Counted from the first letter of the stretch, positions 1 through 60,362 are shown. The stretch: 60,362 bases of DNA from Catajapyx aquilonaris (GCA_000934665.2 JYFJ02002241.1:1-60362); one strand, 5' to 3'. Notes: generated by a model not told the origin, from the letters alone. A program made the numbers and translations.

Positions 1-1515
1 CTGTATGGATCTGGGAGCCGGACATTGTTGGATTGTTGCCCACAGGTGGTAAGGCCTCTTTGGCTAATTACACCTGCAATTCTTTTATCTAGGGCCAAGG
101 TTGTGTGGGTGATGCGAGTGGAGTGCGCTGTCATGTGCTTGGCGCTGGGTGACGACGTGGTCACTTTCGAGTTGCCTGGAGGCTGGGCAGTACACGTAGT
201 TGTGGGTCATCTGTACTGACTGGTGGTTGTCGGTCGTTGGAGGGAGACTGTACCGATAGACGAATGGTAATGATATTCCAGTGGAGGGATCGAAATAGTG
301 TCATAGATGGGAACGTACTTTGTATTGAGAGTACGAGTTGGTGAACTTGAATGGGTTCACTGATTGTTGCGGGCCGATGCTGTAGTTGCGGCAACGTGCC
401 TGTGGAGTCATGTCAAGATTATTTGGATATACTGTAATGGGAAGTTACATAGAAAGTTGACTTGATCACGTGTTGATAGAAGGTCGGACCAGAATGGTGG
501 GTCACATGTGTGTCGGCTGGGCCACATGGACGGCTGGAGGGCAGTTACCATCACTCCACAAGCCGCACACCCCTGACGAGCCCCAAGTAAGGGCGAAACG
601 CGTCGGGTGTTGTTTGTGAGTAGTGGGTGCTGATGTGATGTAGGTGATTCTGCAATATAGTTACTTGAGCATAAGACGCAGTCTCTCCAGTTTTTTCACC
701 TAGAATTCCACACTCCCTGATTCTCATACCTCGTCAGAGCCTACACCAGAAGGTGGGTCACATGGTGGATCAGGCAATTGTATGCTGATGGACGCTCGTT
801 CATGTTTTGGATGAGTGGTTGTTCATATCAGGTTTACCTGATGTGAATATCGTCGTTAGGGACGACGATGACACTTGGCTACGTTGTTGAGCGTAGGCTG
901 AGGATCTTGATTCTGTCGAGATGTGACCGTGGCCAGTGACTGTGTCATTGCTCCATGGATGCGAGCATCCATGCCCCGTTGATCAGTGAAATCCCTTGGT
1001 GGGTACCTACGGAGGGGTGGTGGTCGCCCAAGTTTGGGTGACATCACTTAGTGGGTTGTTGCAGGACTCTCTGGTCAAGGAGTCTAGACACCTGACAGTA
1101 GGAGATGATGAATATGGCTTGTATGGAGCCGGGGGCGAATTTTGATGTACCTAGAAGTATGGTTAAGTCAAGACTTGGTGTTGCTGGTTAAAAGGAGGGG
1201 GTTTTAGGGTCAATGAACTGACGCCGGTGTAAAGGTGGGGTGACAGCATTGTTGGGTCAGCATTGAAGCGCCTAGCAGTGTTACTCGTGCCTAAATGGGG
1301 AGCTGGTATGCTCTCGCGCGAGGTTCTAGGATCCGGAACAACCGTACCAAGCTGGTGACATTAGGGATAAAATTCCGCAGCCGCCGAGAGGGTTGTGATG
1401 GCTGTTGGAAGTGGTGTCATTTCCAATGGGGCTGGCCGTTTTTGAGTCAGAAATGGGTTGGCATGGATTCTGGCCAGAGCCAGTTTTACGTAGATGGTGA
1501 TATTGGTTAGCAGGG
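1..1515 (-). mobile_element. Possible heavily decayed Penelope-like retroelement remnant
   Basis: Minus-strand translations give PLE-like motifs in the expected order: KLALARIH..FL (~1440-1490), LLGTSKFAP (~1130-1160), PSVIVVPND (~850-880) and a DP-containing motif (~755). There are many stops and frameshifts. The nested hammerhead supports a PLE context. Confidence 0.3.
567..610 (+). ncRNA. Type I hammerhead ribozyme (minimal PLE/retrozyme type)
   Basis: Stem I ACACCC 567-572 pairs with GGGTGT 605-610. Core CTGACGA 573-579. Stem II GCCC 580-583 / GGGC 591-594 with loop CAAGTAA. GAAA 595-598. Palindromic stem III ACGCGT 598-603. GTC cleavage triplet 602-604. Confidence 0.87.
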
Positions 1516-2608
1516 GAGGACTCTGTTGAAAAAGAAAAAAAAAATAATTAGTAACAGTAGTGATGATCACATGGTCATCGTGTGGTATTGGACACGACGA
1601 TGAGGTGGTTTGAAATAGCAATTCTTGCATAGTGCAACAATTGTGGGAAATGGAAGATGTAAAAGTAAGATGGAAATCTTACGGATTTTTTAAAACAATC
1701 TGGATAGCCCTTGCGCAATTGTGCATGGGTACTCAGAGAAGACCGTACGGCAAGAGGAAGAGGCGGAAACGTGCTCCAGGGTGAGGACCGGGATGCTGAG
1801 GAAGAGAAGAAGACGGACTGGGCGGACGCGGCTGAGGACCAGGAAGCTAAGGAAGGGAAGAAGACGGAGTTGGAGATGCAGGTTGGTGGCAGGAAGAAGG
1901 ATGTGGAGGAGAAGATGTTCGACTTTTGCAGCACCTGTCCAGACATTTAGTTAGCGAAAATACGACTGTGACATGTCCGTTCAAGAATTATACTAGGGCT
2001 TATAATAACAAGTCATCTTATAAGTCACATGTGCGCAGGCAGCATAAGAGCACTACTTTGTGAGATGTTAAGGCAGACTTTCAAGTATGGGACAAGCATG
2101 CAAGTTCAGGTCAAGCAGAACAGACGTTTGACACTAGCACAGATATGGAGATCAACTATGACAATAGTGACGTATATAGTGAAACTGAAGATCAAGATTT
2201 TCACAAAGTTGATGTTCATGCATGTAATAACACCGTTTGGCGGTTTTATTTGGAATTGCATGCAGATCAACATGTTCCAAACAACAGTGCAGCACATATT
2301 TGATGGAATAGGGAGTCTTGAAAGGCTGTCAAATGACCATGTAACTAACATACTGGCTTCAGTGTTACGAAGGCGCGAAGTTTCATCTGAGATTAGTAGT
2401 AGCATCATCACGGAAGTCACAAGCAGCAATCTGTTTCCCAATGCTCATTCTCCTTCAGGAACTCTGGTTCTATGTAGTCCATGTTAGACTCATAAAACTT
2501 GTTACGTTTGTGACAGGACTGCAGAGTTCATTGAACTGAGCCATTGCAGGACAGAAAGTCGCTCAAATGCTGCATAATTATATCCATATCCATATATCCA
2601 TAAGAGCC

Positions 2609-4445
2609 AAATCGGCGCCAGGTCCGGATTATATATCTAACGCGATGTTGAAGGAAAGCTCCTCGAAGATGAGAGATGTTCTTTTTGAAATTTTTGCGAA
2701 ATGTATATGCGAGCATTCCTGCCCAGATGGTTGGGCCGAAGCAAAAATTGTTCCCATATTTAAGGCAGGAGATGGTTTGGATCCAAATAATTACCGACCC
2801 ATTGCCCTATTTAACAATACTTTTAAGCTGTTTACTGCAATTTTGGCACTCAGATTACGGAAATGGATTGAGACATTCCATTTGATCCCTGATTGGCAAG
2901 CAGCCTTTTGCAAAGGCCGTTCGTGCCTGGACCATCTCTTTACCTTACAAACCTTGATTAATAAATATCTGAGTAAACCTAAAGGAAAATTATATGCGGT
3001 ATTTATTGACCTGTCCAAGGCTTTTGATTCTATTCACCATAAATTACTTTTTTGGAAATTGGCCCAACTAGGCATGAGTCACAAGTTGCTCATGCTTTTA
3101 CAAGAAATTTATAGCAAAATGAGAATTGTAAGCCACGAACTAGCGCAGGACTACATTCCGATTGTCCAGGGCCTGCCACAAGGCGAATCGATGAGCCCAA
3201 CTTTATTTAACCTTTTTCTATCGGATATGTCGGACTTTTTGTTATCACATGACGCAAATGGTGTTAACCTTGGACTGGGTACGCCAGACATAATTTTTTT
3301 AGCTTTTGCGGACGATATTGTTCTTCTGTCTGACAATCCGCTATACTTACAACGTAATTTAAATGCAGTGCGTGCCTACTTTGGAAAAAATTCCCTACAG
3401 ATAAATCTGAAGAAGACAAATATTCTATGCTTCCGACGTGGCGGAAGAAATCCAGACCGCCCTTTTTGGTGGGGTGAGACACGGATAACCCCCTCTAACA
3501 CGTAGATCTACTTAGGGGTTCCATTCACTATATCAGGGAAATTCAATGTAGCAGCTCAATATTTTAAAACCAAAGCCTTGGCTGCGATAAATTCAATGTG
3601 GTCGACCCTAATAAAGCTAAAAATTAGAGATATCCAGGTTGCAATCAGGCTATTCAATTCGAATGTTCTCCCCATAATCACATACGGCGCCCAGATCTGG
3701 GGCCCGCGGTTCTCCTCGGTGATGAACCAGGTTCGGTTGACCTTTTTAAAGAAACTTTTGAGACTGCCCAAGAATACTGCTTCATATTTTGTCTACCTTG
3801 AAACTGGACAGACTCCTATCTCTCTTATATTAATAAAGCAAACTGCGAAGTTAATCAGTAAGTTTAGCCAAGCTAAGCAGGGGACTATATTACGCAACGC
3901 GTTCGACTATGCCACAATCTCAGACAAACCAAATTGGCGCAACTCGTATTCAGTTCTGTTGGCTCAATTGGGGTTATCCTGGCAGGACCGATCTTACATC
4001 GTTACTGTTCAAGTCCAAACAACTTCTGAGTCAGCAGCTCCTTGCCAGCCTCCAAGATACACATAGATACCAACATTACAGGCAGATTAAACACACACAT
4101 GAAATTGAAACGTATTTTTTATATGGTTTGCCACTTTACACGCAAAGAATGTTAGTTAACCTAAGGAACAAATCCCCATATATCCCAATCAACCACGAGG
4201 TATCTGTACAAATTGAAAGTGATGACAATTGTAGTTGGTGTAACTGTAATACTCAATTAACGACCCTCCATGTTCTATTTGAGTGCCCAATATTTGAGAC
4301 CCCACGGAAGAGTTACTTGAGTGACCTTTCTATTGTATCCTCGGAATTGTTACCATTTGTGTTTGCCGATTTGTCCAAAGTCCAGATTTATGCCCTTTTT
4401 TCTTTTTTCTCAAATGTTGTAAAACGTATCCAACTGTGTGGTTAG
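2609..4445 (+). pseudogene. LINE ORF2 reverse transcriptase plus C-terminal CCHC knuckle, disrupted
   Basis: Motifs KSAPGPD, NYRPIAL, FIDLSKAFDSI, GLPQGESMSPTLF, FADD and YLGV, with C-terminal CSWC-x8-H-x4-C. In-frame TAG at 3503-3505 and a frameshift near 4000. Confidence 0.9.
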
Positions 4446-4533
4446 TATGGCGATGCTCGGTGGTTGTGTCCCCCTAAAAATGGCCAATAGGCCAGCTAAT
4501 GGGGTAGAATAAATAAATAAAAAATAAATAAAA
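2609..4533 (+). mobile_element. 5'-truncated non-LTR retrotransposon (LINE) with A-rich tail and 15-bp TSD
   Basis: Target-site duplication ATATCCATAAGAGCC at 2594-2608 and 4534-4548. (AATA)n/A-rich tail at 4508-4533. RT coding sequence begins right after the 5' TSD. Confidence 0.93.
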
Positions 4534-5747
4534 ATATCCATAAGAGCCTGCAGTCTTTAAGCCCACTAATTGATCACATCCATAGTGGAAGTTGCTATAA
4601 GAACAATCCACTCTTCAAAGATAATCCAAATCCACTTCAGATTATCTTGTACCAAGATGCATTTGAAACTGTGAACCCTATTGGGGCAGCTCGGGGGGGA
4701 AAAAAACAAACAAACATAAAATGTTGGCAATATACTTCCCGCTTGCAAATATTCCAAAGCATTTGCGATTCTCCCTGCGTGTAATTAGGCTGGTGATGCT
4801 AGTTCGAGAGGCAGATGCCAATGCAGCAGGGCAGCGCATGTTATTTGCCAGATTGCTGCAAGACCTGCAGGTTCTCCAGAAGTCAGGTGTGGGCATCAAT
4901 GGGAAGTCAGTGCTTGGGACTGTCCATTCCATTTTGGGGGACAACCTGGGAAGCCATTACGTAGGAGGATATGGCATGAACCACTTCCTCGAGCATAGGA
5001 TTGAGAACTTGGCTAGGAAGCCCTCAGCTACAGTAGTAGGCGCCTTGTGGTTCCCAAGCCACTTCCGGTTTCATCACCCTGTGCTGAACCCTAAAGTGAC
5101 TTGGGACCCACAGGATGAGGCACGAGGTTGGTGGGCCAAGGTGGGCCAATCCATGCATGCCATTGTTGTCATGCCATTGTTGACCAATCTCCAAATATAC
5201 ATGCCATTGTTGACACGGAGCGGGTGAAAACAATAGGATCCTTGGAGCAAGCCAACCTTGTCATCCTGCCACCCCCAGATGAGGGCAGGGTCAACCCTGT
5301 AGTTACATGCATTGTTGGCATTGTTGGCATCATAGGTGTGCTGCATGCTAATTGTTGTCGCATGCCATTGTGGATTGGTGAGGCCAGCTCAGAGAGAATG
5401 ATCCGGGCCAAATGATACAGGACAACCAGATAGGCAGGCCCAAAATATGCATGCCATTGACACCTCGTTTCTGCCACGAGAAAACAATGGGAGAGGGCAG
5501 GATCCACGTGCCCTTGGGAGGAGCCATTGAAGGCACAATAGAATAAAAAGAGGGATCCGAGTGGGAAGGAAAATATTATTGTGAAGAAAAAAACAAATAA
5601 ACTCTCCAGAGAAATTATGCCCATTTTTATACCAGGCAAAACAGGGCTTCCACCTTTAAAGTGCCCAAAATATTTTAACAGTGTTGCCAATTCAGGGCGG
5701 ATAAACCCAGTTTCCAGCCACAAAAAAATCGACTGATGACCCAAGTG

Positions 5748-6148
5748 TTAAACCTTTATTTCTTTTCCCATACATTCTTTATACCTTCCATTTGTCACAT
5801 TTTTTGTTTTGTCAATGGTGAGGAATGTAAAAGGTTTCTTATTCCAACAACGCATACACTCTGTTTAAATTCTTGAAAGTTGTCGGAGCAGTGGTCGCGA
5901 AAGATCATGTTCAGGTTGCGATCGCAGACGGGAAAGACGAACAAAATGTTGGAATTGTCACGTATGAGCGCGGCGGGAATTCGTGTATACGTCTGAGCCA
6001 GATACAGGGTGTGGGTATTACGATGTCGCCCGTGGGTGAAGGCATCCATAATAATTCTCTGTTGTTCCAGCATGACATCGTCCAAGATTAACAGTTGGGG
6101 GCCATGTGGTGCGGAGGAGGGGAGCGGGGGCTCGTCAGTAAATACCAA
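5748..6148 (-). pseudogene. A32-like DNA-packaging ATPase, C-terminal half (Polinton/Maverick or adintovirus type)
   Basis: Walker B LLILDD, arginine-finger motif GRHRN, YLAQTYTRIP and IRDNSNILFVF. After a frameshift near 5858 it continues CWNKKPFTFLTIDKTKNVTNGRYKECMGKEIKV* (stop 5748-5750). Walker A half is absent. Confidence 0.75.
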
Positions 6149-6468
6149 TCTATGCCCTTTGTTTCAGAACAGGATTTTCGGACCGTCGCCTGCGCCTGTC
6201 CCGCGCTGCCCCTGACCCTGCCCCTGCTCAGGATTCGGCTACTGCCCCTGCTCGGGGATTCGGCTACTGCCCCTGATTCAAGGGAAGAGGCAGCCATCCC
6301 CGCCCCTGGCCTCATGGATCATATTCATCGGTATGTGTGCTGTTCAAGCAAAGTGGAAAAGAGGAAACTCATCCTTGCTTGATTGGTGCCGGTAATTTAA
6401 TACTTATTATGTCAATCCACCCCACCCCACAAGAGCTCAGTCAAAAATAATTTTATTTTCATATTCAG

Positions 6469-6857
6469 GTACAAGTCCATATGACTGTGAGTCATTTGTC
6501 ATAGTTCTAGACAAAGTAATGGCCATCAAGGGCATTGAAAACTACCTACAAGGAATGGTGACATTGATGGCCACATATTATGTGTTTGGGCTATCCTATC
6601 CCGCCAGTAGTTCAACCACTCTTGAATTCATTCAGCGGTAAGTTGACTGTTTTAAAAGTATATCTTGAAATGTGTGCTTATTTGTGTTATTGTAATTGAC
6701 AGATTCTTCCTGGGGGATTAATCCGGAGCGCGGGTCGAAGAGCCACACTCCAGGAGGGCGCAGTAGGAGTGGCGTGGACGCCAAAATTCTCAAACTCATC
6801 AGTCTACTGAAACAAAAGACATGGCAGCTGGATGCCATGCCCTTGACCCAGCACTAG
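6469..6857 (+). pseudogene. Last two exons of the CMC/EnSpm accessory ORF (SAMD3-like C-terminus)
   Basis: Exon 6469-6637 (..LMATYYVFGLSYPASSSTTLEFIQR), GT-AG intron 6638-6702, then exon FFLGINPERGSK.. with one extra G causing a frameshift. AATAAA near 6917. Confidence 0.6.
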
Positions 6858-6954
6858 TACTTCTGTTGTGATTCGTGTGACCGACTGTTACTAATGAATT
6901 GATGAACAGTTGTCCAATAAATAATTTGCCTAAACACTGACCACATTTCGTGCT

Positions 6955-6972
6955 ATTTTTTTTTTTACAGTG
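6955..6972 (+). mobile_element. CMC/EnSpm 3' terminus (reverse complement CACTGTAAAAAA)
   Basis: TTTTTTTTTTACAGTG ends at 6972, just downstream of the accessory ORF. ACTGTTACTAAT near 6885 is the inverted match of ATTAGTAACAGT near 1547, hinting that the left end lies near 1520. Confidence 0.55.
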
Positions 6973-9289
6973 TACTTGATACAGTAGCCCTGCATGAAGA
7001 TATAATATTATATGCCATCACTTAGCCGTATTGAGACACTGAAACTGGGAAATTATATATATGTAGTGCAGCATAAAAAAAGATTTTAATACTTATTACT
7101 TTATGCTATTTATAATAATGAATGGTTTTTAGGAAGAGTGAGAATGAGGCGTGTGGCCAACAGGGAGCATGGAAGCAGGCGTCCAGAGCCCAACGCATGG
7201 GGAGTAAGGAGGGAGTCGAATGCACACACTGCATTAATTGGCTGTAACCTTTTTGAATAATAATTGAAAATATTTGAAATTTTAATTTGACTTGACCACC
7301 CTTTATTTCCAACCTTGCCCGCTTCACTATCACTTTGAGTGGAGGCCACCCTGGACTTTAAACCAGAAAAGTTGTTAGTTCAGGAGCCACTCACAAATGG
7401 TGAGAATGAATGGCTCTGGAACTTTCGTATATCGTAGCAATACTAATTGATATTTTCAGACATAAAAAAAAACCAGGTGGGTACAGTGCCATAAGTTATT
7501 CTGGTTGCTGCACTGCTGGTCAGAAAAACAACTTTCACTTGAAAAAGGCAGTACAACTAACAAGAACCAGTGATCTACAATCTTAGTAATATCTCCAGGA
7601 AACAAACTCTTACTATGTTTTCATTCGGGCATCACAGGGGGACAACACCTTCCGAGATTGAAAACCAGGAAGGACGGTCATGAATAAAGTGTCAAGACCT
7701 GAAGAAAGTGGTTTCATATTATGTCATGTCATATATTATTACTCTTGTAGATGAAGCTTGTAGATCTCATATACACAGCACTATTCAGTCAAATTATGTC
7801 TAACATGTCCAAAAATTAGATGTGGAGAAAAAGGTGCATAATACATATATGTGAATTTCATTTGCCTTCTTGTAGAATGCTCAAGAGACCAGAAGTTAAC
7901 TTCTTATCAATTCACAATTCACACGGTGTCAAGTGACAAGACTCCCGCGGCAAGCACACCGAGAGAACCAATTAAGAAAAAAAGCACGACTTGCACCCCG
8001 CCATCACGGGTCGGTTGCCATCACCGGCACCGACCAAATACTACACTTTGACATCATTGATAAGGACCTTATATATGTGTACACATGACGGCACAGGCAT
8101 ATGCACGACCTCAGTAAGATAGCCAGAATCTTGCACAGCCAAATGTCCAGCTCTTTGCAGACCACAGTTGCCCTTCCCCTGGCAAAGAGTGGCTGCCCGT
8201 AAAACATGGAAAGTCTCCTTCAAAATACCTGACATCCAACTGGGTTTTCACCTGCTTGTACCGCCGGATCTTGTTGCACTACACTGCGCAAATAAATCCG
8301 CTAACATTGTGTTATCAGCATCTCTCACAGCCAAAAGAAGGAAAATATGATCAGAGACCTCATAACCGGAGCTCGTGAAGTGAGCATACATGACATCCAA
8401 ACACTTCAAAAGCATTATGGAAACGAGGTTTGGCACCAATGCTGCAGGTGACAGACACAAATAATATTAGTGCCGCATGGCAACATATTCCTTCTCAATA
8501 AGGCACGCTCCTGTTTAACCACGAACCACACCTTTTTCTTCTTCACAGGCCACGAGCAAGAGGGGCTCAGAAAATGAAGCAAAGTTCTTGCATTCCTCTG
8601 GCAGGTCAAACACTTCTGAAACACTCTCAATCATGGCAAGCGTGCCGAGGAAACTCGCCGCGGTCACCACCGGCCGGGGACATTCCACACAATACAGAAC
8701 TGATACTCATTACACACAACTCTCCTTTATAATAAATGGATTCTCAAAAAAGTGGACTTCACCCAGTCAATCATACTGTTGTACCAGACGATGCCAGCAC
8801 CGCTCAGGAGATGGGAGGAACACATTGTGTCGGGCACAAACTCACAAGTGATTGAATGTGGCAAGTTTCACATGAAGATACGCAGTTACAGCAGGGTGAA
8901 ACTGAGCCTGCTGCAGGCCACACGAGCGGAAACGCGAGCAACGAACCACAACCTGGTCCTTCAAGAGAGCGGTTTTACATCGGGTTAAGTGTGGGGCATG
9001 TTACCATCAACTGAGCAAAATTTTTAAACTGGCAAAGGGATTCCAACTAAGTTCACAAGGACAGTACCAGATGGGACTAGGACTATCTACACAATCAGCA
9101 AGAACTATATATAGAGCTACTACTGGCCACTTTTAGATTGCGAAATTGGACCGACTTGTTCAAGCACCTAATTTCAGAGGGACGCTACAAATCCAGTAAC
9201 CATGTGGGGGCTCCCCAGCACGCAGTTTTCCATGAGCTAGAGAAAAACCCGCTACAAATACAGCACATTGCGGCTCACGGAATGGACCT

Positions 9290-9600
9290 TCACCACGGCT
9301 TTAAACATGGGAGGTCATTCGGACACCGATGGACTGTAACAACTCCACATGATTTTTCCACAAGACAAAATTGCACCACGAGAAATCCTGCAGTTCTTAG
9401 AGACACAAACTAAATCAACGTCTTTCCTAAAGCATCCGGGTGGAGTTACAAATACTCCTCAGGATGTCAGTGGCTATCGCAAGTGGAGAGCAGAGCTTTA
9501 CCACGGTGAAGCTCATAAACACAACGTATCTATGGCTGACGAGAGACTCACATCGCTTGCAGTGTTATTCATTGAAAACGAAACAGCGCAGCGCAACCAT
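9290..9600 (+). pseudogene. hAT transposase C-terminal dimerisation domain remnant
   Basis: VFPK..LQILLRMSVAIASGEQSFTTVKLI followed, after a frameshift, by MADERLTSLAVLFIENETA. Confidence 0.75.
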
Positions 9601-10717
9601 CAGTTTGCAGGTCACGAAGCTCGGAACACTCACTGGTTGCTGTCCAGTAAAATCCTGCATGAACTACATAGAATGGCAGAAGTGTGAACTTTCTGATAAT
9701 ATTTTATGGCTGAGTGAGTTTCAGCATTACTCTCAACACACATTAAACCGTAAACCTTGATAAGAGTTATAGGAACACATTGAAATGTACAAGTGTGAAA
9801 ATTAGATAATTGGTTGAGTACGAGAGTCTTTTTGCACTTTAGAAATTTATCACACATCACATAACAGGCCAAACCGAGTTACTTTCCACAAACAATAATA
9901 ATGGATGAAATGATTGACAAGGTGCCTGCGACGGAAGTTGGATGCCACACTCATATTACATCTGAGACGCACAAAGAGAGGAATCCATTGCAAACTTTTA
10001 AGACATTGTCATGCGACAGGTAGTGATGTCAAGTCTTCAACACATGCAGCTCTAAATAAGCTGGCTAAAACATGAGAAATCAGTCGCATGCCTGTACTAT
10101 ACATGTAAATAAATATTATCAATCCTGTAATGCAGGCAAAAATGATTCAGATAGGCGCATTATGTCCCATGGTTTAGCCATGTTCCCTCTCCTAATTACA
10201 CAATCATCAGAGGTTGCTGCTTCTGGGGGATGGATCAGAAAATAGGTACACATCAAAAGGATAAAGAGTGTCGAAGGGTGTCGACTTGATCAGCCAGAAT
10301 CACATAAAACTCAAAACGGTGGATGCCGCGAGTCATTTGTCACTTTGCAGATGCGGCTCTTCCGAATTCTTAGAGAGAGTAACACATGATGAAATTAGTC
10401 AGGATCATTCACGCACAAGATTCAAGCATTGTATTCAAAGGCACGTATATGATGGTACCAGCTACAACAGTGATGGCACACTCATTCTATGAAACTGCTC
10501 TAAGTTACGTAACAAAATGGACTGAAAAAAAAAAACTTTCATGACTTCCAATCACACCGTTGGATAACCTTGAACAAGAAGACCTCTATGGGTACACACT
10601 GAGAACTTCATCTCTTGAATCTCAGGAGCTGTCCGGTGCCAGTTATTATCGGGGTGTTCCTGAAGTGGGATCAGGGGGACACTACAATATGCAAAAGCTA
10701 CGTTATGCTTTTGCTAA

Positions 10718-35250: not shown

Positions 35251-35269
35251 AGTGTTGAGGAGCAGACGG

Positions 35270-48136: not shown

Positions 48137-48444
48137 GGTTGTGTTTACACATGAGCGATTTGATCAGCGATTAGCTTCTCTGAATGATGCAAGCTGTAGA
48201 TGTTCTGACATCACTACAGAAGCCATCGCACTTGCAGTGCTGCCTGCCGCCACACTACTGCCACTTGAATACGGTTGATTTGTCAATGACTTCATGGATA
48301 CAGCGATAAGGCATTGCTCATGCCTCTTTCAAATAGACCCAAGCACTTTCATCAGCGATTCTCTCACTTCCAAAAGGCGACCCCCTACTTTCTGCCCAAT
48401 ATTGGTTTCATCGCTCATCAAATAGCTCATATGTCAACGAGGCC
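48137..48444. mobile_element. MITE with degenerate ~28-bp TIRs (Harbinger-like)
   Basis: Left end GGTTGTGTTTACACATGAGCGATTTGAT versus right-end reverse complement GGCCTCGTTGACATATGAGCTATTTGAT. Confidence 0.55.
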
Positions 48445-49013: not shown

Positions 49014-49196
49014 ATTGGTGAAAGACACTTGTTATCTCCTGCACATGTGATTATTATTTATAATCTTGGGAAAGCTTCCATTTTTTTATTATTAGTTTTG
49101 TTCTGATGGGAAGTTTCAGAAATAATAATTACTCAAGATATACATTTGCACTCGTTTTGTAGCCAGCAACACAAAATGTTACAACTGTTGTAAGAT
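49014..49196 (+). repeat. Duplicated segment (other copy 58525-58709)
   Basis: Near-identical ~180 bp lying upstream of each hAT copy. Confidence 0.9.
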
Positions 49197-49440
49197 CCCA
49201 GGCAGCACAAAAAGTTGGGCCAATATTGGACGAATGTTGGCCCAATATCTTGAATCTTGGGCAATATTGGCAGCAGATCTATTGCCATTCAAACTCGCCA
49301 AGTAGCACAAAAAGTCGGCCAACGTAGGAACCAATGTCGGGCCGATGTCGTGTGAAAGTCGGCAAATGTCGGGCCGATGTCGTGTGAAGGTCGGCAAATG
49401 TCGGCCGACTTACCAGTCTGTGGCCAATCTTGGCCGAATG
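49197..49440. mobile_element. CMC-type end fragment(s) with palindromic subterminal repeats
   Basis: CCCAGGCAGCACAAAAAG and CCAAGTAGCACAAAAAG starts, repeated TTGGCCCAA / GTCGGGCCGA motifs, and a 31-bp tandem duplication near 49333-49400. Confidence 0.5.
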
Positions 49441-50502
49441 TAGGGAGCCGACCTATTATTATCCCCGTGCTAAACTCGTGCGAAGGCAGATAATAACGGT
49501 AGCAGCTTTATGCGTGAGTACGTCACGAGTTGAGTCTAGTCAGGCATAAGGACGAGTGGAACTGCGCGGTGACCTCCGCTCCTTCTCCGCCCTTGGTCTA
49601 CAGGCCTACAGCAACCCGGGGCCCGGGGCCCACCCTCGCCGCTGCCCCTAGCTGGGTCTCATGCACAGCTGGTGAGTAAAAGGTTCAGGCCTGAACTGCA
49701 CGTATTATTGTTGCAATATAATATTTGCACATTCAACTTCATTGAAATGTTTCATGATCATTTTCAAGCGACACATTTATAAATGTTAATTGTATTAGGG
49801 TTGGTTTTTAATCCAGGGTTTCACTTAACAGGTTCATTCAAAACCAGCGTAAGGACGGCAGGCGTGATGATGGAAGGATTGGAAGCATCAGGGCAGCCAG
49901 CATCAAAATGATAACGGCGCAGCGGAGACTTATCAGGACAAGACAATGCTGAAGTGACTGTGTTGGCCGGTGTTGGGATTGCTGGAGTAGTGAAAGTTTG
50001 GTGCCAAAGTTTGATATGATGTGGGAGATCTCTGCATCCAGATGAGGATCGCTCCCGGGATGGAATTTGCCATGACGAATCGCGATCACTATTTTTTTCA
50101 GAGCATGAATCCTGATTCGCCTGTCACGCCAGAGTCAGTGAATATAGTGTTTCACAGAGTTCCAGTGCTTGGTGATTTTTATGACTATCCCTGCAAATCA
50201 TCCTCTACATTTCAGTGTATAAAATTGGAAAATGTCACAATGCCCACTTGTAAAAAATGCACACTTGTAAACTGTCACAGATAGGTCATCAGTGCTTGGC
50301 TATGGAAGAAAGATATGTCGTCGTACTGAAGCATCAAACATTTTAATGTATGTGATTCCAATCACTCTTATCACTCGTCCTCAAAATTTGCACACTTTAT
50401 TCAGAATAACCCTGTATAGCAGAAATGTAACTGTGGCATTCCGGTGGTTATGCTTCTTTTTCCCTGTCATCGAAGGTTTTGGATGTACATAGTGTTATGA
50501 GA

Positions 50503-51186
50503 CTTGACTGTACTCCCGATGTCAGTCACCAGGAGCAGATGACACTGGTAATCCAGATTGTGGATGTGACAGAATCAAACGTGGTTGTAGCTGAATACTT
50601 CTTGAAATTTTTGCGTGTGACACGACAGGGAAACGGGCCTATCAAAGTCACTGCTAGCTAGTCTCGATGAACTTGGACTTGCCATTAGGGACAAGGGTAT
50701 GACAATGGCGCAAATATGAAGGGACATAACCAGGGAGTTCAAGCTCGCATTCTGCAAATTAATCCCCGAGCGTTCTTCACATCATGTGGCTGACATAATT
50801 TGAACCTGGTTTTATAAGATATAGGCCAAGTGTATCCCACAAGCAATGGCTTTTTTGGGGGTGATTCAGAGACTATACACCATTTTCGCGCACTCAACAA
50901 ACAGGCGGCACATTTTAAAGAAACACACACACATAAGTGTTAAACCATTATCGGACACACGATGGGAATGCCGGGTGGAAAGTGTCAAGGCAATTCGTCA
51001 TCAGACCAGTTTTGAATTGTGCGACATAACAGATGATGCAAAAATCAAGAGTGAAGCGGAATATTTGGTCGAGCATGAACTTGAAAATTTCGAATTCTTG
51101 CTTGCTACGATCATCATCTAGTACGACATCCTTTTCACTGTGAACACTGTCAGTAAAATGCTACAATCTCAGAACATGCAGTGGAT
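50503..51186 (+). pseudogene. hAT transposase remnant (ZMYM1/DUF4371-like), copy 1
   Basis: LDCTPDVSHQEQMTL, QGYDNGANMKG and VKPLSDTRWECRVESVKAIR. Confidence 0.88.
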
Positions 51187-51211
51187 GTCGCTATTCAGCA
51201 AGTCTCTGGTC

Positions 51212-51259
<48 letters not shown>
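51212..51259. repeat. (TAT)n microsatellite
   Basis: About 16 consecutive TAT units. Confidence 0.97.
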
Positions 51260-51260
<1 letters not shown>

Positions 51261-52179
51261 ACAGCAATGGGCAGTCTGAATATTATCTTAGGTCAGGATC
51301 ACTTTTAATGTTGTAAAGTTAGTGACTTATGTTGTAGCTGCTGATATCTAGTGTCTTCCCAACAGTATGTGCAGGTCCACTGTTATTTAAAAAAAAAAGT
51401 GTGAAGTGTGAAAATAGTTAGATTTCAGCTAGCTCCTGATCATGACTTTCATGGTTCATATCATAATTTATTATTGTTGATTACTATATAAGTATTCCAT
51501 GTTATACTTAACTCTTGTGGGATCCTTGTTTTCAAATGAAATAATTTTACGCATCCCAAGTTGTAGTTATCGACAGCATAAATCACTATGTCTATTCCTA
51601 CTTGCAGGCAGAAAAATCAGAGCATGCTGTGGCAAATACTCCAGGATCAAAATTGTTTTTGCCAAAGGATGGGAAGAAAACCACTTACATCAATGATCCT
51701 CCACAGGATGTAATCCTCCCGAAGGATTGTACAGTGGAGAGGGCTTGGGGGTATACTACATAAAAAGTCTTGATTACCCTAGTGCATTCTCCCAGCTCTT
51801 AGGATTATTCCAGATCACTGACACCCAAGGACACATTTTATAAGGGGTGGATGACAAGCAAGCTAACTGTATTGCTAAATCATGTGCCTGACAGACAGAG
51901 GGGGAAGAAGAAGAGGAAGTAGACTGCTGAGCTGAATAAATGTTTTTTACAATGAACAAAATGATCTCTTGCCGGAAGGAAGGGCGACTAGTAAGGGACA
52001 CCCTGTATAATAGGAAGTCCGGCAAAGGATTCATAAACTATCATTTTGAAAACGATGAGTGTCTCCCACTTTCGAATTAAAAAAACACAGGAAGGAGGAC
52101 AAGTCAAAACCTGCAGTTGTAGATCATGGTGATAAAAGTGAAAGTGACGACTTGGCCACGGGGACATGAATGGAAACAC

Positions 52180-52330
52180 TTTTCTTCAGTGGATTAAGGA
52201 TCCTCAATACACCACCAGGGAGCCTAACATTCGTGGACAATGCTTCATGCAATTCTACTCAAGAGGAGGAGTTGGCCAACCAGAAGTGGAGGAAGGAGAC
52301 AGGCCAGAAGTGGCTTGAACATCTGCACCT
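52180..52330 (+). pseudogene. Tc1/IS630-like transposase fragment
   Basis: LTFVDNASCNS..KWRKETGQKWL resembles the DNASYHS..WRK..IQ.WL region. A CACCCTGTA mariner-type end lies near 52000. Confidence 0.45.
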
Positions 52331-52853
52331 GCTACCCCCTAGTAATCATCTGAAGAAGGCGCATTCAGATTTGGATGACCCACTCAAACGGTTATAAAAT
52401 CATTTTGTACATGCTGAAATGTCAGTGGATTCTAACTTGGCAACTGGGACCCACACTGCACAGCTGCTGGAGAAAACACTCCGTTCTATGATGGAAGAAT
52501 GAAAAATACCAGAGGAAAAAAATACAACTTGTGTTAGAGATGGCCCAGCCACCATCGTCAAACCAGCAGGTACAATCATTTCCGTCTAACAGTCATCTGC
52601 TGACTGTCATCACAGTACCATATCTGAGGGCGTCAAGAAATCATGCCCAGAACGAGATCTATTGATCATCAAAACTGATAGATCTCAAAAGCAAAATTTC
52701 CATAGCGTCATAGCTGCACTGTATTGTGCATTTACGTCGACATACTTCATATTTGAGGACGATACCTACAGTACACAGCAGTACAGGTTGTTTTAAGTTC
52801 GATTGACAACAACCTGTTGCTTCCGAGCAGCCCAAGTACGAAGAGAAGCAGTC

Positions 52854-52899
52854 CTACGGCTACGAGCAGCCCAAGTAATCGGGCTGCTCGTAGCCGTAG
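52854..52899. repeat. Perfect 19-bp inverted repeat with 8-nt loop
   Basis: CTACGGCTACGAGCAGCCC - AAGTAATC - GGGCTGCTCGTAGCCGTAG. Confidence 0.95.
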
Positions 52900-53179
52900 T
52901 TCTGCTAAAAACCGTTCGTAATTGGGGTACAAATCATTTGATAAGTTTCTATCTTTTTAGATGCCGCCAACAAAGTCATCCGAGGTAGACAGCCGGGCCC
53001 AGGTAGCTGCTGCACAACGGGAGGTAGCTGCTGCACAACGGGAGGTAGCTGCCCTGTTTAGTAGTCTGGCTTGATTTGTTGAGTGGGAGGAGAAGGGGGA
53101 TGAATCAGTTGGGGACCATTCCTTCTGTTATACTCACAGGTTTTTACTAAATCAGCATTGTTCTCCCATAAGGCATAGA

Positions 53180-53338
53180 TATGCAAAGATAAGAATGACG
53201 GGAGGGTTACGAGTGTTTTCCTCTGCCCAATTTCTTCCAAGAAAGGAGCCCCCATATGATTCTAAAACATTGAAGGCTTTTGAGACGAATCCTTCGAGTT
53301 TCAGCGCATAAGCTTACAGATTTACAGCAATTAAGGTA
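53180..53338 (+). repeat. Dispersed ~160-bp repeat, copy 2
   Basis: Matches 41025-41183. Confidence 0.85.
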
Positions 53339-53685
53339 TTTCTTAAGCCATATCTGAGGGGTGGGGCTTTGCGGGTAAGCCCTATCCTTTTACACAGGGT
53401 GACGTAAGAAATACCAACCCTCTTTCACAGAAATATTTTCCATCCGACGACATGAAAATATACTATACAAGGAAAATATGTTATAGAATTTTTGAAGTTA
53501 AATTAAATATTCCTGAAGCTCCTAGTACTACAACATATAGATATAATATTACGCGTTACAAGTGCCTTAAAAATCGACCGAAGTATGGCAATGTTGCGTA
53601 ACCTCAGCAGTTGTGTGCCGAAGGTGTCATGGCGGCCTCCAGATCCCCTCAGAACTCGCTGTCTCGTATAGTACCGGACAAGACC

Positions 53686-54412
53686 ATGTCGAAACGCCAG
53701 CCATTTCGGTGGAAGGGGAAGTTGGTGACCGAAGCTGTGTATCGCAAGAGACTCGCCCAGCGAGAATACGCACAAGGAAAAGCCAAGAAACCAGTCGATC
53801 GCAATGAAGACGAGTGTGTTGTGAAGGGGCGTCGTCTGGTTGACTTCAGTGTACTGGCAAAGTACATGCGTTGTCGCATGTGCGACGCAATGATGTCCTT
53901 AGAAAACATTGAGGGAGAAGACCAGCATGGCTTGGGTTTTGTGTTGCACATCCGCTTTCTGCATTTTGTGTTTGTCAACCCAGTGCCCACCAGCATGTCG
54001 GCATGGGTGGCAGGCAGACCCTCTTCGACGTAAAGAGCAGGATCCATCTACTTCAAGAGTCACTTGCAATGAGGAATTTCTTGGCACACCTGACACCAAG
54101 AGGAGGCGAGTGGTCAGTGACCGTGCAGCTCCCTTCATTGCTACAGGTACTCCAATGAGCCAAAAGAGTGGCATCCAAAGTAGGGGACGACAGCGCACAT
54201 CAGTCATTGGTCACTCTCAGGGACGTGGTGCGCCTCATGGTTGCATATGACATGGGGTTCAGCTGCAGGGGCAATGGTCACAGTTATGACAGTTTGAATG
54301 GCTATGGAGCATTGATAGGATGTCACAGGGGGCTTGTGTTAGACTATGGTACTAGGAACAGAAAGTGTAAAAAATATTACTTAGGCCACCCAAAAAAGGA
54401 CCATGATTGTAG
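53686..54412 (+). pseudogene. Mutator-like / Kolobok-type transposase remnant
   Basis: GRRLVDFSVLAKYMRCRMC..LENIEGEDQHGLG and AYDMGFSCRGNGHSYDSLNGYGALIG..VLDYGTRNRKC..HDCR. Confidence 0.75.
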
Positions 54413-54439
54413 ACTTTTATTCATGCTTGCACATGTTCA

Positions 54440-54600
54440 GCCAGCTAGATACACTACACAAGCAAAAGATGTACTTCAGGAATCGAGGGTGGTACTACAT
54501 TGAACCAGTAGAAGTAACATTGGGTCAGCGCTATGATCAAAGATACAGCAATGTCACAGTCAGGCAAATCATGAGAGAGAACGAAAAGGTGGTTCATATT
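54440..54600 (+). pseudogene. Possible CMC/EnSpm transposase fragment
   Basis: DTLHKQKMYFRNRGWYYIEPVEVTLGQR resembles the YF..P.E..LG region of animal EnSpm transposases. Confidence 0.4.
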
Positions 54601-55009
54601 TGCCTTCCGGTCCCCCGCAATGGGCTAGGAAATTGATTACATGTGGTACCACTTTCCTACGAAGGACGGGGGTCGGTCCAAGCAGGGTTCATTTCCAAGA
54701 AATGAAAACATGCTGTACAGCAAGAGTAGAAGGGTCAAGGGAGCACACATGGAATTTTTCGCCCTTTGTGACATGTACTGTATATCGGACAAAATTGCGT
54801 CGCTGTCCGCATCCGGACAGCAGTTCAATAGCCCTGCCCTGGAGGAATTATGAGTGACACGTGCATACTGTGTCCGGATTCCCTCGATAGTGGAATGGCC
54901 GTCGTTAATGTAGAATGCAGGGATTTGGAGGGATTGAAATCGGCGAGTGCGCTCAGAAAAGACCAGCAGGCCAAGGAAACCAAGAAAATGGCACAGGCGG
55001 CGTGTCATT

Positions 55010-55830
55010 CATGAAGTGGTGACCATTACGACAAGCACAGCTGGCACAATATTGTATGAAAAATGGTACACTGACATAAAAAGGTTGCCAGAAGGAGAAA
55101 ACCTGCGCATTGGTGAAGCTGCAGCCGAAATCATCCGGCAGGATATCCATGGTACAGTCTATCGCACCGACACTTAGCCTGCTGCAGATCCTACCTCCTT
55201 GTCATGTGATGATAATTTACCGTCCACATTAGCACACTTTCTGAAGAAGGTCATAACTTCCAAAAGTGTCAAGGAAGTAGTTGTGAATCGCAAGCGTGCA
55301 GCTATCGGTGAGGCTGTAGTAGGGGTGTACACCCATCGACATTATGGCTCAAGACATATAGTGGACATTGTCAGCAGTCTGTCGTTTTCTGTTACATACA
55401 AGAAGGTTCAGAGGTGAGTATGAGGATGACAGAATAATGACTTGTAATTAATGTATCACAATCACATTTACTTCCAAAATCACATGGGTTTCACTTTTAA
55501 AAAAATTTACATACAGGTACGAATTCTCAATGATGGAGACCTCTAAGGCCGTCCAGGCTATTCGCGAAGGTGAAGAGTACACGCAGTATGAGTTTGACAA
55601 TGCTCATTGCGACATCAAGGCAATGAATGGACTTGGAACGTTCCATATCATGGGAGGCATGCGATTTACAGCGCCAGCGAAGACCCAGACTCAGCGAGAC
55701 ACCACGCATCCTGAGTCCCCCACCTGCCACTGAGATTTCTACCAATGGGAGAATGATTGTTGTGTGGTATAAGAAGCCGCCAAATCCTGGTCTGAAAGGC
55801 GTGACTGTTAGAGGGCTGGGAGACCTCAAC
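55010..55830 (+). pseudogene. DNA-transposon protein remnant, probably Academ-like
   Basis: ILYEKWY..RIGEAAAEIIRQDI and GVYTHRHYGSRHIVDIVSSLSFSVTY, then an intron near 55414-55517, then YEFDNAHCDIKAMNGLGTFHIMGGM. Confidence 0.5.
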
Positions 55831-56048
55831 GATCACGTCTCAAGGTGGGTGACTAAAATTAGGTCGGGCGCACTCACGAGAAAAACCAAGCTTATGCCGC
55901 GCCGCCACTCTATTCGAGGTATTAATTCATTATTTTATTTTCCTTACAGATCAGTGGAAATCGGTCTAGCAATGGCTGTCAGTCAAAAATGAAATCATCC
56001 TCCAGCATAGTAAAATTTTCTATAGTTCAAGAAGTACGGGACAGCTAG

Positions 56049-56170
56049 TTGGGCGTCCACAGCGTAAAATGCGATGGCACACGTGATGCTGCTGGCTCGG
56101 AAAGCTTTGCAATTGTGGTTCGTTGTGTTGCAGCTGACATCAGGGTTGAAGCCACTGGACTTTTGAAGTG
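56049..56170 (+). pseudogene. hAT transposase fragment (first catalytic Asp region)
   Basis: HSVKCDGTRDAAGSESFAIVVRCV. Confidence 0.55.
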
Positions 56171-58751
56171 TATATCTGAGAATACCAATTTCATTATGTC
56201 TGCCGGGTGTTCATCTGCTCTGCAGCGAAATAATATTAATTTTTTTCTTCGTACAGAAATCCCAGGTTTTTCTCCACCCTGGATCAAACGCTGGAGCAAC
56301 TATATGAGAGATTCAGAGAAGGACGATCTGAACTGTACAACACCATTGCTTCACTTTTGCCCCGTTCAGGTGACTCTTTCCTTACGAAGGAAAAATTGCG
56401 ACCACTTCTACAACTGGAACTTGTTGGATCCATAATTGATTAGAGTGGCAAAGACTCTCATTCAAGAGCAGCTCTCTGACGAAACGGATATAATTTCTAT
56501 GCCCTTGCAAGGATTTCCTAACTTGCACAGTATCTACCCGATGAACATCGTGTCGCCAACTTGTGGCGGGCCGACAGGTGGCATATTTGCGACGCGTCGC
56601 TAGCGACATCCGCGCTATTGTGCCGCCTTCTTTGGATGATAGATCTTAACAATTTATTTCCCGGGCAATATGCTGTCTTATTTTTATTGCCTGCAAATCG
56701 GTGTGGTCACTGCAGATATTCTGAGAATTGACTATATATTGACACAGAAACCCATTTTGCTAGGGACATATAAACTGAGTTATACAGTATACATGCCACC
56801 AGGAATTAGTGCAATGCAAAATGAACAAGCTGAGTTATTGGCTTCTTTTCTCTTATTCTCAGTTCAGTTTATTTTTATTGGATTGAATGTAATTAAAATG
56901 GAATGAATCACACATTACTAGGGCTCAGTATTAGCAACTGCTGCGACATATTAACAGTTGAACATGCTAAAACCAGAACTTCTTTTAAACTGCAGAAAAA
57001 ATCCCAATAAGGATGCAGTTAATTTGAGGTTCCTTAATATAAAAAATAGAAAAAGGTTTACAGCGTTTCTCGTGTGAACCAAATAAGTCCTGCATGCTGA
57101 TTAAAATGTCCATTTTACTCATGCTATAGCATGAGGTGAGCTTTGTCTTTGTAACATACTTTTTTTTTTACTTCACAGTGTATTAACTACATTTGTTATG
57201 ATAAGTAAGATGACATTTCAATTGATATCTGCAATTATTTTAGATGATATACGGGTACTTCTTGCCCGCCAAAAGGCACAAGAGTCTGAAATTTACACAG
57301 ATGTGAACTCAACGGAATTGGAAGATGTTGCAAGGAGGAGGAGGAGAAGAAAACGCTTGTACCCTGTAAGATCATCATCGGAAAGTGACCACGAGGCTCT
57401 CCCATTACCAAAAAAGAAGAAAAAGAAGAAAGCATCTGCAGGAAGTATGCGCCGTTATCATTAAACTACGAATTATTTGTCGATAGTATTACCATTTTAC
57501 TTTCCTTTCATGCAGAATACAGAAGGCTTCCCCGACTACCACCACTTCAGCTAGATGAAGAGGTACCCATCAGCTCCAGCCCAAGAGTTGGGCATCTCCA
57601 AGGTGCATATAGCCGCAACTGATTTTTCTGTGCAATCACCATTTCCCCGGGAAAAAAGTAAGTTATAATAACTAAACACATATATAGGAAAGGGCAAAGA
57701 AAATATAACTTATTCTTCAGGAGTATGCTATCTCATGAAACTACCCTTATATCGTCATGTGCAGTTTTACTGCCACAATGCATTTAGCTATTGCTCACCT
57801 GCCAAATGAAGTTATCATAATGTGGAGTGTTGCATTAGGCCATTGTTTATTGTCCAATTTATTTGGTGTGACAGACCATAGCATGTATCACTTACACAGG
57901 TCATTTGTCTTATTTCAGTTATTTTGCAACATTTTGGCATGCCTCTGCCAGCTGAAAAAATTATGTTGGAACATTTTTATTTCATAGGTTTCAGACAAGG
58001 CCTTGCCCAGCAACTGCCACAGCTTCAGCAACCACGCCATAGTGGTGAGGATAACCTTAGTGGTGATAACGATAGTGATGAGGATAACATTTTTGCTAAA
58101 AATCTCCATGAATCATGACATGTGACTGTTGTGAGTGCAATAACATTATTCTTTAATTTCCTAGGTTCTAACATAGGAGAAGAGCAATCAAGCTTTGCAC
58201 AAGACTTAACTGCACTGGAACAAATTGACATGTTCCATTCGTAATTGTTCATTATTAGTATAATTACTGACGCATGATCTGTAGAGAAAATATATGTCCA
58301 CATTAGCAGCAGCAGGTGACCGTCGAGAGGACGTTTTCGTACCTGCGCTTTATCCTGAGTGCCCTATGAAGTCGCCTATCACGTAGCGATGTCAACGACA
58401 TCCTCCTCGTATGGTGCAACAGGCTATTCCAAAAGGAGGAGTAAAACTAATGAAAATTATTTTCTAAATTCAGAGTGCTGTTATATCATTTTGTTTTCTT
58501 GTTATGTGGAGGTTATAAGATGTTATTGGTGAAAGACACTTGTTATCTCCTGCACATGTGATTATTATTTATAATCTTGGGAAAGCTTCCATTTTTATTA
58601 TTTTTATTATTTTTGTTCTGATGGGAAGTTTCAGAAATAATTACTCAAGATATACATTTGCACTCGTTTTGTAGCCAGCAAAACAAAATGTTACAACTGT
58701 TTGTAAGATAACACTGCCTTTGGTATAATATAATATATCAGGCTCATAAAA

Positions 58752-59581
58752 ATGGGTGCCATACAAGACCATTACCTCGGACATCGTATCCTAGATGATC
58801 TGACTGAGCTGATGGCGTTGGAAGTCCGTGAAAAAATCATCGAGAGAGTGAAACGTGCCAAATATTTTTCAGTGATTCTTGACTGTACTCCCGATGTCAG
58901 TCACCAGGAGCAGATGACACTGGTAATCCAGATTGTGGATGTGACAGAATCAAACGTGGTTGTAGCTGAACACTTCTTGAAATTTTTGCGTGTGCTTGAC
59001 AAGACAGGGAAACAGGCCTATCAGAGTCACTGCTAGCTAGTCTCGATGAACTTGGGACTTGCCATTAGGGACAAGGGTATGACAATGGCGCAAATATGAA
59101 GGGACACAACTAAGGAGTTCAAGCTCGCATTCTGTAAATTAATCCCCGAGCTTTCTTCACATCATGTGGCTCCCATAATTTGAACCAGGTTTTATAAGAT
59201 ATAGTTCAAGTGTATTCCACAAGCAATGGCTTTTTTTGGGGTGATTCAGAGACTATACACCATTTTCGCGCACTCAACAAACAGGTGGCACATTTTAAAG
59301 AAACACACACACATAAGTGTTAAACCATTATCGGACACACGATGGGAATGCCGGGTGGAAAGTGTCAAGGCAATTCGTCATCAGACCAGTGGCATCAGGG
59401 ATGCCCCGATTGAATTGTGCGACACAACATATGATGCAAAAATCAAGGGTGAAGCGGAATCTTTGGTCGAGCATGAACTTGAAAATTTCGAATTCTTGAT
59501 TGCTACGATCATCTGGTACGACATCCTTTTCACTGTGAACACTGTCAGTAAAATGCTACAATCTCAGAACATGCAGTGGAT
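58752..59581 (+). pseudogene. hAT transposase remnant (ZMYM1/DUF4371-like), copy 2
   Basis: HYLGHRI..IIERVKRAKYFSVILDCTPDVSHQEQM, LSDTRWECR and IWYDILFTVNTVSKMLQ. Confidence 0.9.
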
Positions 59582-59909
59582 AGGTAATGGAGTAAATATG
59601 ACACTGACAATATATCTCTATCTCTATAAATAAGGAAGCTTCATTGTTAGTTTGGATGTTTGTCCCTTATAGAAATCCAGGGGAAGGCCCCTACACTGCC
59701 TTAAATTAGCATATCGGGGGTTACTTTTTCCAAGGAATCTAACGCCGCATGTTTCAGCTTCCGAAAATGTACCTAACTCCCACAACACGCATATTCCTGC
59801 CTCAACAATTAGCTTACAATAATAACAATAAATCAATTTGCATTCCCATGGAAATGCCTCGCTTTTTTTAGCTATTTACCTCCCTGCATCGTACCGCAGG
59901 GAGGGAACC

Positions 59910-60241
59910 TTTATTTCGTCTTGATGGAACCTTTTTGACGTAGCGCCCGGGCCCACGGGCAGGGTGACTGGGAGGGGATGTGCAAGATGCAAGTGCAATT
60001 CTCAAACGGTATATTTTGTGAACTCCCCCGGGTGGATTAGTCTGAGGAGATTCCACCCGAAACGAAGCCAGAGACGACCCAACTCTGCACGGGATGAAGG
60101 AGGGAACCCCGGGCTGGGTTCGAACCCGACGTTTCCGCAGCGCCACTTTGTCTCCCCTAGGAAATGCCCTTATGCCACAATACCTAGCAAATTAAACCAT
60201 CTCCGTAAATTCAGCGCATCCACCAATTACGCTAATTGGCC
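59910..60241 (-). mobile_element. Candidate second tRNA-derived SINE family
   Basis: On the minus strand: box A-like TAGCGTAATTGG (60234-60223), box B GGTTCGAACCC (~60126-60116), an ATTGCACTTGCA..CCCTCCC core shared with the 47730 SINE, and AATAAA near 59910. The post-box-B segment also matches 36087-36126 on the plus strand. Confidence 0.45.
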
Positions 60242-60362
60242 ACCTCACGTGACTTCGTATCTTACGGTAATTCTGGGATTTTGTGGGATTTGAAACTAGA
60301 CTTCCAGACAAGGTAAATACAATTAAATAATATAGTACTTGCAAAATATTACTCCGTGTTGA

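Follow-up and report, generated by a model that had tools for sequence, protein, structure and literature searches.

Can a genomic source of PIWI-interacting RNAs (piRNAs) be recognized from the orientation of the transposon remnants that it contains? This question is raised by a stretch of 60,362 nucleotides from Catajapyx aquilonaris (GCA_000934665.2 JYFJ02002241.1:1-60362; "the window" below means this whole stretch), in which an initial annotation, made by eye, had assigned about 25 of 28 transposable element (TE) insertions to the plus strand. We found that the window is a graveyard of truncated, adjoining transposon fragments from many superfamilies, with nearly all of the recognizable coding remnants on the plus strand, and that the same-strand bias of these remnants is real, but smaller and less documented than was first claimed. 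The sequence suggests, tentatively and with less than even chances, a uni-strand piRNA source locus on the minus strand, of which the piRNAs themselves, the promoter and any transcription in that direction are inferred. We regard the locus as a candidate, not as a discovery.

Strand orientation of the transposon remnants

The initial annotation had been read from the plus strand as printed, which makes plus-strand genes easier to spot; for this reason, we used searches that treat both strands alike. All stop-to-stop open reading frames (ORFs) of at least 50 amino acids (aa) (n = 558; 290 on the plus strand and 268 on the minus strand) were scanned against Pfam at E <= 0.01, and all ORFs of at least 62 aa (n = 344; 180 plus, 164 minus) were rescanned at a relaxed threshold of E <= 0.5. 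Since Pfam misses fragments that real transposase sequences pick up, we also searched the 30-45 kb region against solved structures at E <= 0.01, using frames that were read through with X at stops (plus frames 2 and 3, and the three minus frames).

The Pfam scan placed eight transposon-type loci on the plus strand and one on the minus strand. Relaxing the threshold gained TE-type matches solely on the plus strand (HTH_Tnp_Tc3_2, DUF659, rve/rve_3, SH3_Tf2-1 and a second mariner frame), and over 1-19 kb and 40.9-60.3 kb the relaxed rescan gave no extra TE family. Between 30 and 45 kb, solved structures matched five TE loci in the two plus frames (Mos1 mariner, HzTransib twice, a retroviral/Ty3 integrase, and Helraiser) and none in all three minus frames; plus frame 1 of 7001-22000, searched against the same structures, gave no match. 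The union of these both-strand searches comprises 11 TE loci on the plus strand, three of them weak, and one on the minus strand, for which the one-sided binomial probability is 0.003. When the weak loci are dropped, eight of nine loci lie on the plus strand and the probability is 0.02. Targeted searches added two further plus-strand loci, a DUF7869 fragment and a second hAT-like copy, and bring the ratio to 13:1, a figure that is not strand-blind because the ORFs for these searches were picked by eye. A dense field of same-strand TE remnants, such as is seen here at either ratio, is what would be expected of a uni-strand piRNA cluster. The loci are as follows:

2540-3502, plus strand: reverse transcriptase (RT) ORF of the long interspersed nuclear element (LINE) type, 321 aa (Pfam RVT_1, E 7.7e-36)
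5798-6163, minus strand: Polinton/Maverick-type A32-like packaging ATPase fragment (Pfam Pox_A32, E 5.3e-5; 23.2 bits, just above the curated cut-off of 22.8)
22534-22812, plus strand: weak Tc1/mariner-type helix-turn-helix (Pfam HTH_Tnp_Tc3_2, E 0.021)
25754-25942, plus strand: weak transposase-type helix-turn-helix (Pfam HTH_29/HTH_32/HTH_23/HTH_28, E 0.0014-0.017)
31639-32065, plus strand: mariner transposase fragment (Pfam Transposase_1 at 31649-31810, E 1.3e-6; Mos1 chains, E 1.5e-7)
32420-32797, plus strand: Transib transposase fragment, copy 1 (6pqn_A, E 3.6e-11)
34501-35150, plus strand: DUF7869-family protein fragment (four relatives placed here by tblastn)
35030-35422, plus strand: short hAT-like piece, weak (Pfam DUF659, E 0.047), followed by the start of the integrase
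35426-36137, plus strand: Gypsy/Ty3-type integrase core and C-terminal domain (Integrase_p58_C at 35820-36137, E 1.5e-8)
37626-38438, plus strand: Helitron transposase, N-terminal region (7lcc_A, Helraiser, residues 174-346, E 2.1e-14)
38622-39089, plus strand: Transib transposase fragment, copy 2 (6pqn_A, residues 343-458, E 4e-20)
50498-51186, plus strand: hAT-like element, second copy (by blastn to the copy at 58.9 kb)
54159-54500, plus strand: Mutator-like transposase fragment (Pfam Mutator, E 1.1e-10)
58734-59630, plus strand: hAT-associated DUF4371 protein fragment (Pfam DUF4371 at 58734-59033, E 1.7e-4)

Several of these assignments were recovered in more than one way. Both the match to Helraiser, a Helitron transposase, and that of the second Transib copy reappeared in the read-through of plus frame 3 (E 2.8e-12 and E 5.1e-18, respectively). 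The two Transib pieces are co-oriented, share 50% protein identity and lie 6 kb apart; their structural match, 6PQN, is HzTransib according to 10.64898/2026.08.26.747230. The Gypsy-type integrase further matched rve/rve_3 at 35426-35761 (weakly, E 0.016-0.052), the prototype foamy virus (PFV) integrase (E 3.7e-9) and Ty3 (E 2.6e-5), and the LINE-type ORF is flanked by more long plus-strand ORFs between 1972 and 5224. The hAT-like copies at 50498-51186 and 58.9 kb are direct repeats with 92.7% identity over 712 bp (blastn), and their ORFs share 86% identity over 102 aa (blastp). The plus-strand ORF at 34587-35096 had four relatives (E 6e-34 to 2.5e-15), all four of which carry DUF7869; the fragment is unclassified as to superfamily, and we consider it putatively of transposon nature. 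For the hAT-like ORF at 35030-35422, solved structures gave no convincing match. At 34501-36137, the DUF7869 fragment, a hAT-like piece of about 100 bp and the Gypsy-type integrase abut one another without a spacer and in one orientation; a nested insertion with deletion, or recombination, are possible origins of this mosaic.

The direction and strength of the bias reported in the initial annotation are thus borne out by the 11:1 ratio from both strands, whereas its count of about 25 plus-strand fragments is not, about half having been found. Its list of more than 10 plus-strand superfamilies likewise shrinks to the seven with tool support, all on the plus strand (LINE, Tc1/mariner, Transib, Gypsy, Helitron, Mutator and hAT, besides the unclassified DUF7869 family); CMC, the short interspersed nuclear element (SINE), Sola, Harbinger, Kolobok and Academ-like elements were not recovered. 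For Harbinger, there is a resemblance by eye at 46063-46368, and ARAGORN gave no tRNA-like gene that would indicate tRNA-derived SINEs. The Polinton-type ATPase that it had placed on the minus strand was recovered, and is the sole TE-type match there.

Evidence that does not depend on naming the elements was also obtained. Self-comparison by blastn gave 12 repeat pairs, nine direct and three inverted, and among the pairs at least 3 kb apart eight of nine were direct, with the limit that two pairs of pairs represent the same elements, so that not all are independent. ORFs of at least 130 aa exceeded the shuffled expectation on both strands, more strongly on the plus strand (18 against 2.0 expected) than on the minus strand (eight against 3.0 expected, including a receptor gene described below and ORFs antisense to the Mutator fragment). 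Three of the longest unexplained minus-strand ORFs were tested for relatives, and none was positive: the search with 13801-14295 found none, that with 27158-27736 found none among 1.84 billion representatives, and 5172-5747 had no relative among solved structures, the only set searched for it. Nine other Pfam matches (E 0.002-0.009), to unrelated families, under the curated cut-offs and distributed over both strands, were read as chance.

Base composition between 7 and 44 kb

We examined base composition as a possible footprint of transcription. In human genes, the available text of PMC1391917 describes four such footprints: G+T in excess on the sense strand (52.7% at equilibrium), substitutions in repeats that are biased, a tendency of repeats to lie in antisense orientation, and a sense strand depleted of poly(A) signals; the antisense preference of repeats within genes is given there as strongest for long terminal repeat (LTR) elements and weakest for DNA transposons. 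The corresponding feature of the window is the following:

7001-44000, no strand assigned: compositional skew domain, with A > T and C >= G on the plus strand and a G+T excess on the minus strand

The A+C content of the plus strand is 53.07% across 7001-44000, 50.3% across 44001-60362 and 47.9% across 1-7000. Hence, the minus strand of the domain carries 53.07% G+T, as the sense strand of a gene would under a rule that comes from human genes. Of the 57 overlapping 1-kb windows that start at 7001 to 35001, 55 have more A than T on the plus strand, as does the stretch at 38.5-44.5 kb. The domain has sharp edges, each about 1 kb in width, one near 7 kb and the other near 44 kb. The skew is of the same size in the verified TE fragments (+0.096) as in the remaining sequence of the domain (+0.090), which indicates that the recognized coding remnants alone do not account for it. 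For transcription of the minus strand over 7-44 kb, the excess of G+T and the antisense orientation of repeats are present and poly(A) depletion is absent, and the repeat copies inside and outside the domain hold too few differences for substitution asymmetry to be read.

Poly(A) hexamers (AATAAA and ATTAAA) were counted against 300 dinucleotide-preserving shuffles. On the plus strand of 7-44 kb there are 31, against 41.4 +/- 6.2 expected, a mild depletion reached in 14 of the 300 shuffles (31 or fewer); its direction runs counter to that suggested by the composition skew of the same region. An excess of A-runs (13 against 4) was considered as independent strand evidence and set aside, as composition alone explains it. 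A T-rich block at 36.0-37.5 kb (AT skew -0.23), which contains the window's single N at 36519, breaks the A-rich domain; situated just upstream of the Helitron fragment, it may be the non-coding 5' part of the Helitron, or a later insertion of opposite polarity.

Host-type genes within the transposon field

Three host-type features lie among the transposon remnants:

15744-17195, minus strand: intact gustatory-receptor (7tm_7) chemoreceptor gene with four exons (Pfam 7tm_7, E 4.8e-9)
19345-19587, plus strand: single ankyrin-repeat ORF with plausible acceptor and donor (Pfam Ank, E 3.1e-5)
30723-30893, plus strand: weaker ankyrin match (Pfam Ank, E 8.9e-4)

A TM7 motif is the hallmark of the gustatory-receptor (7tm_7) family. 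The chemoreceptor has both the profile match, with a 382-aa ORF (16050-17195) that covers model positions 25-309, and the C-terminal TM7 motif, which lies in the last exon at 15744-15851 (model positions 351-367 of 370, E 0.0057). Its introns, with splice sites placed by eye, are a GC-AG first intron and two more short ones, all of about 60-90 nt, and since they are so short, the gene does not span the TE field. A word-indexed protein search with its ORF found no relative, and there is no paralogue within the window. In the Pfam scan of all ORFs of at least 50 aa, which would miss short exons, this compact gene supplied the only minus-strand exons.

The ankyrin ORF at 19345-19587 may be an exon or a pseudo-exon, and the two ankyrin ORFs may be relics of a plus-strand gene or captured fragments. 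An ankyrin gene extending across the window was considered and rejected, as a motif scan found no convincing unit beyond one.

A candidate minus-strand source of piRNAs

The best single reading of the sequence, though not a clean one, is a minus-strand transcription unit with antisense-biased repeats. According to this reading, the window would sit in a long minus-strand transcription unit, and insertions antisense to its transcript would survive or be retained. The reading has two forms, an ordinary long intron or non-coding transcript and a uni-strand piRNA source; in the latter, small RNAs directed against the mRNAs of transposons would be processed from a precursor read on the minus strand. 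A uni-strand piRNA cluster is defined by abundant small RNAs of 24-32 nt that map uniquely, have a 1U bias and come from one strand, and by a long single-stranded precursor that starts at a discrete promoter. What such a source presupposes at the sequence level is present, namely a same-strand bias over at least seven superfamilies, truncated and adjoining fragments, and a 7-44 kb skew of minus-strand sign. A piRNA source would explain why the bias is strong in all TE classes and why truncated fragments form a mosaic. We weight the piRNA form slightly above an ordinary transcript because cut-and-paste DNA transposons show as strong a bias as retroelements do; of all classes, DNA transposons are the one on which ordinary selection within genes acts least. 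A rough Bayes estimate with assumed priors (clusters 1-3% of the genome, introns about 35%; antisense fractions of 0.85, 0.6 and 0.5) puts the cluster at 0.3-0.5 for a ratio of 11:1, and below the intron for 8:1.

A number of observations weigh against a piRNA source. The first concerns TE content: the LTR/Gypsy enrichment of flam-like clusters is not found, as one of the 14 TE loci is Gypsy-type and the rest are LINE, DNA transposons and Polinton-type. Three of the 11 plus-strand loci are weak matches (E 0.001-0.05), the libraries cover few TE superfamilies, and about 85% of 7-44 kb is without annotation. The TE field also contains an intact protein-coding chemoreceptor gene on the minus strand and an exon-like ankyrin ORF on the plus strand. 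As for the footprints, the region at 44-60 kb carries plus-strand TE copies, yet without skew, and the poly(A) hexamers on the minus strand of 7-44 kb are not depleted (29 against 28.2 +/- 5.0 expected), so that the poly(A) pattern is opposite to the prediction of selection for an uninterrupted minus-strand transcript. In addition, the G+T rule derives from mammals and may not apply to this organism. Finally, the same footprints would be expected of a long gene, or an intron, on the minus strand.

This last point leads to the rival that survives best, namely that the window is an ordinary long intron, untranslated region or long non-coding RNA of a minus-strand gene, in which germline transcription produced the skew and purifying selection removed sense insertions because of their poly(A) and splice signals, with no small-RNA function. 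We consider this unlikely on balance. Introns occupy far more of a genome than piRNA clusters, and the sharp edges of the skew near 7 kb and 44 kb are such as a transcription unit would have. An excess of G+T on its sense strand and an antisense orientation of repeats would be expected of an ordinary transcript as well (PMC1391917, in its available text), so that it would explain the skew and a moderate antisense bias, and LINE and LTR elements are described as antisense-biased in introns (PMC3088655, likewise). However, the sole minus-strand exons found belong to the compact chemoreceptor gene, the minus strand shows no depletion of poly(A) hexamers, and the plus-strand bias extends into 44-60 kb, beyond the skew domain. 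Moreover, according to the available text of PMC1391917, no TE class in human and mouse genes has a weaker orientation bias than DNA transposons, whereas here their ratio is about 9:1.

A lower probability, such that we think it quite unlikely, is given to the absence of any function, with the same-strand run having arisen by chance among many windows, perhaps helped by non-independent insertions and by the A-rich sense strands of old elements. The strong matches alone, at 8:1 and a binomial probability of 0.02, are not extreme when one allows for how many windows were scanned; non-independence is possible both for the pair of hAT-like copies and for the Transib pair, whose members lie 6 kb from each other; and the excess of A-runs follows from composition. 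All tool-supported loci together, however, give 11:1 to 13:1, and independent signals concur: of nine repeat pairs at long range, eight are in direct orientation, and the skew has a single sign in 55 of 57 windows. Randomly oriented old fragments would not yield a uniform 37-kb skew.

A transcription unit on the plus strand that carries sense-oriented TE fragments, such as a gene with ankyrin repeats or a long non-coding RNA, is very improbable: the plus-strand ankyrin ORF with its plausible acceptor and donor and the mild poly(A) depletion on that strand (31 against 41.4 expected at 7-44 kb) would fit it, but there is one convincing ankyrin unit only, the sense-strand rule would call for a skew of the other sign, and sense-oriented TEs are the class that selection removes in genes.

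Returning to the minus-strand piRNA source, we can also state a more specific form of it. The locus might be a flamenco-type piRNA source outside the arthropod models, whose archive consists mostly of DNA transposons, both cut-and-paste and rolling-circle (mariner, Transib, hAT, Mutator and Helitron), rather than of retrovirus-like elements, and which would be transcribed through an intact chemoreceptor gene. On the present sequence, this form is rather doubtful.

Other features of the window

The remaining features are the following:

567-610, plus strand: type I hammerhead ribozyme motif with an intact catalytic core (Rfam RF00163, E 2.4e-6; 34.7 bits, gathering score 34)
9340-9684, plus strand: possible hAT C-terminal dimerization region, a lead only (nearest named Atlas clusters Dimer_Tnp_hAT, 0.88-0.89)
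60078-60115, minus strand: 39-bp match inverted with respect to 36087-36125 (blastn, 92% identity)

The left end of the window had been described in the initial annotation as a tentative minus-strand Penelope-like element (PLE) at 1-1515. This candidate is rejected: its minus-strand frames showed nothing by eye, and Pfam gave neither an RT nor a GIY-YIG match on either strand, including the vicinity of the hammerhead motif, where a PLE-type RT was looked for. The hammerhead, a PLE-type motif that is the sole tool-supported PLE-related feature at this end, lies on the plus strand; its minimal form is one reported from the terminal repeats of PLEs, and hammerhead ribozymes are described as sitting in the pseudo-LTRs (PLTRs) of PLEs in the available text of PMC4209133. 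The first 1000 nucleotides are G-rich on the plus strand, with a GC skew of +0.30 over 1-2000 and a GC content of 49%, and no tandem repeat or protein match was found there.

For the hAT lead at 9340-9684, Pfam on six read-through frames of 8401-9902 gave no TE family. A palindromic element at 18636-18760 gives matches to the models of mir-2483 and mir-3121 on both strands; these do not reach the gathering scores, and the element is probably a MITE-like hairpin (MITE, miniature inverted-repeat transposable element) rather than a conserved microRNA. The 39-bp match at 60078-60115, which is the sole long-range inverted pair in the window, may be the minus-strand SINE of the initial annotation.

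Significance and comparison with known systems

If small RNAs confirm the candidate, then piRNA sources could be found from sequence alone through TE strand bias, as is already practised for the flam-like loci of Drosophila, even where an animal lacks small-RNA data and where the remnants are those of DNA transposons, and the locus would be notable for its archive of DNA transposons and its embedded receptor gene. If the DNA-transposon archive were real, antisense-capture selection would act on DNA transposons as strongly as it does on Gypsy in flies. If the window is instead an ordinary transcribed region, it would still be of use as an example, in which composition skew and repeat orientation would jointly mark an unannotated transcript.

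With respect to ordinary genes, we compared the window with the FEAST predictors (PMC1391917, in its available text). Of three footprints examined, two hold for the minus strand, namely an excess of G+T and an antisense orientation of repeats; poly(A) depletion is absent, and the orientation bias of the DNA transposons is far stronger in the window than in that description.

Among piRNA sources, the nearest likeness is to flamenco and the flam-like unistrand clusters of Drosophila (PMC10643416; FlaHMM, PMC11400887). In the available text of PMC10643416, strand-biased TE content served to locate unistrand clusters de novo, which small-RNA sequencing then confirmed; LTR/Gypsy enrichment is given as defining for flam-like clusters, and Gypsy alone as driving the strand bias. 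Flam-like clusters in this sense are also marked by a location away from centromere and telomere and by synteny between species. The window shares with these clusters a dense array of TE remnants with a strong same-strand bias. It differs from them in that its content is mostly DNA transposons, with one Gypsy-type locus in 14, in that it has a protein-coding gene inside, and in that it is known here from sequence alone. The mosquito core clusters, which are described as unidirectional and fed by transcriptional read-through (10.1101/2022.08.22.504762, in its available text), offer a second likeness, as they too are one-strand loci with antisense captured elements and a mixed content that is not only Gypsy. 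By analogy with them, read-through from a gene on the same strand would be a possible way to transcribe such a TE field.

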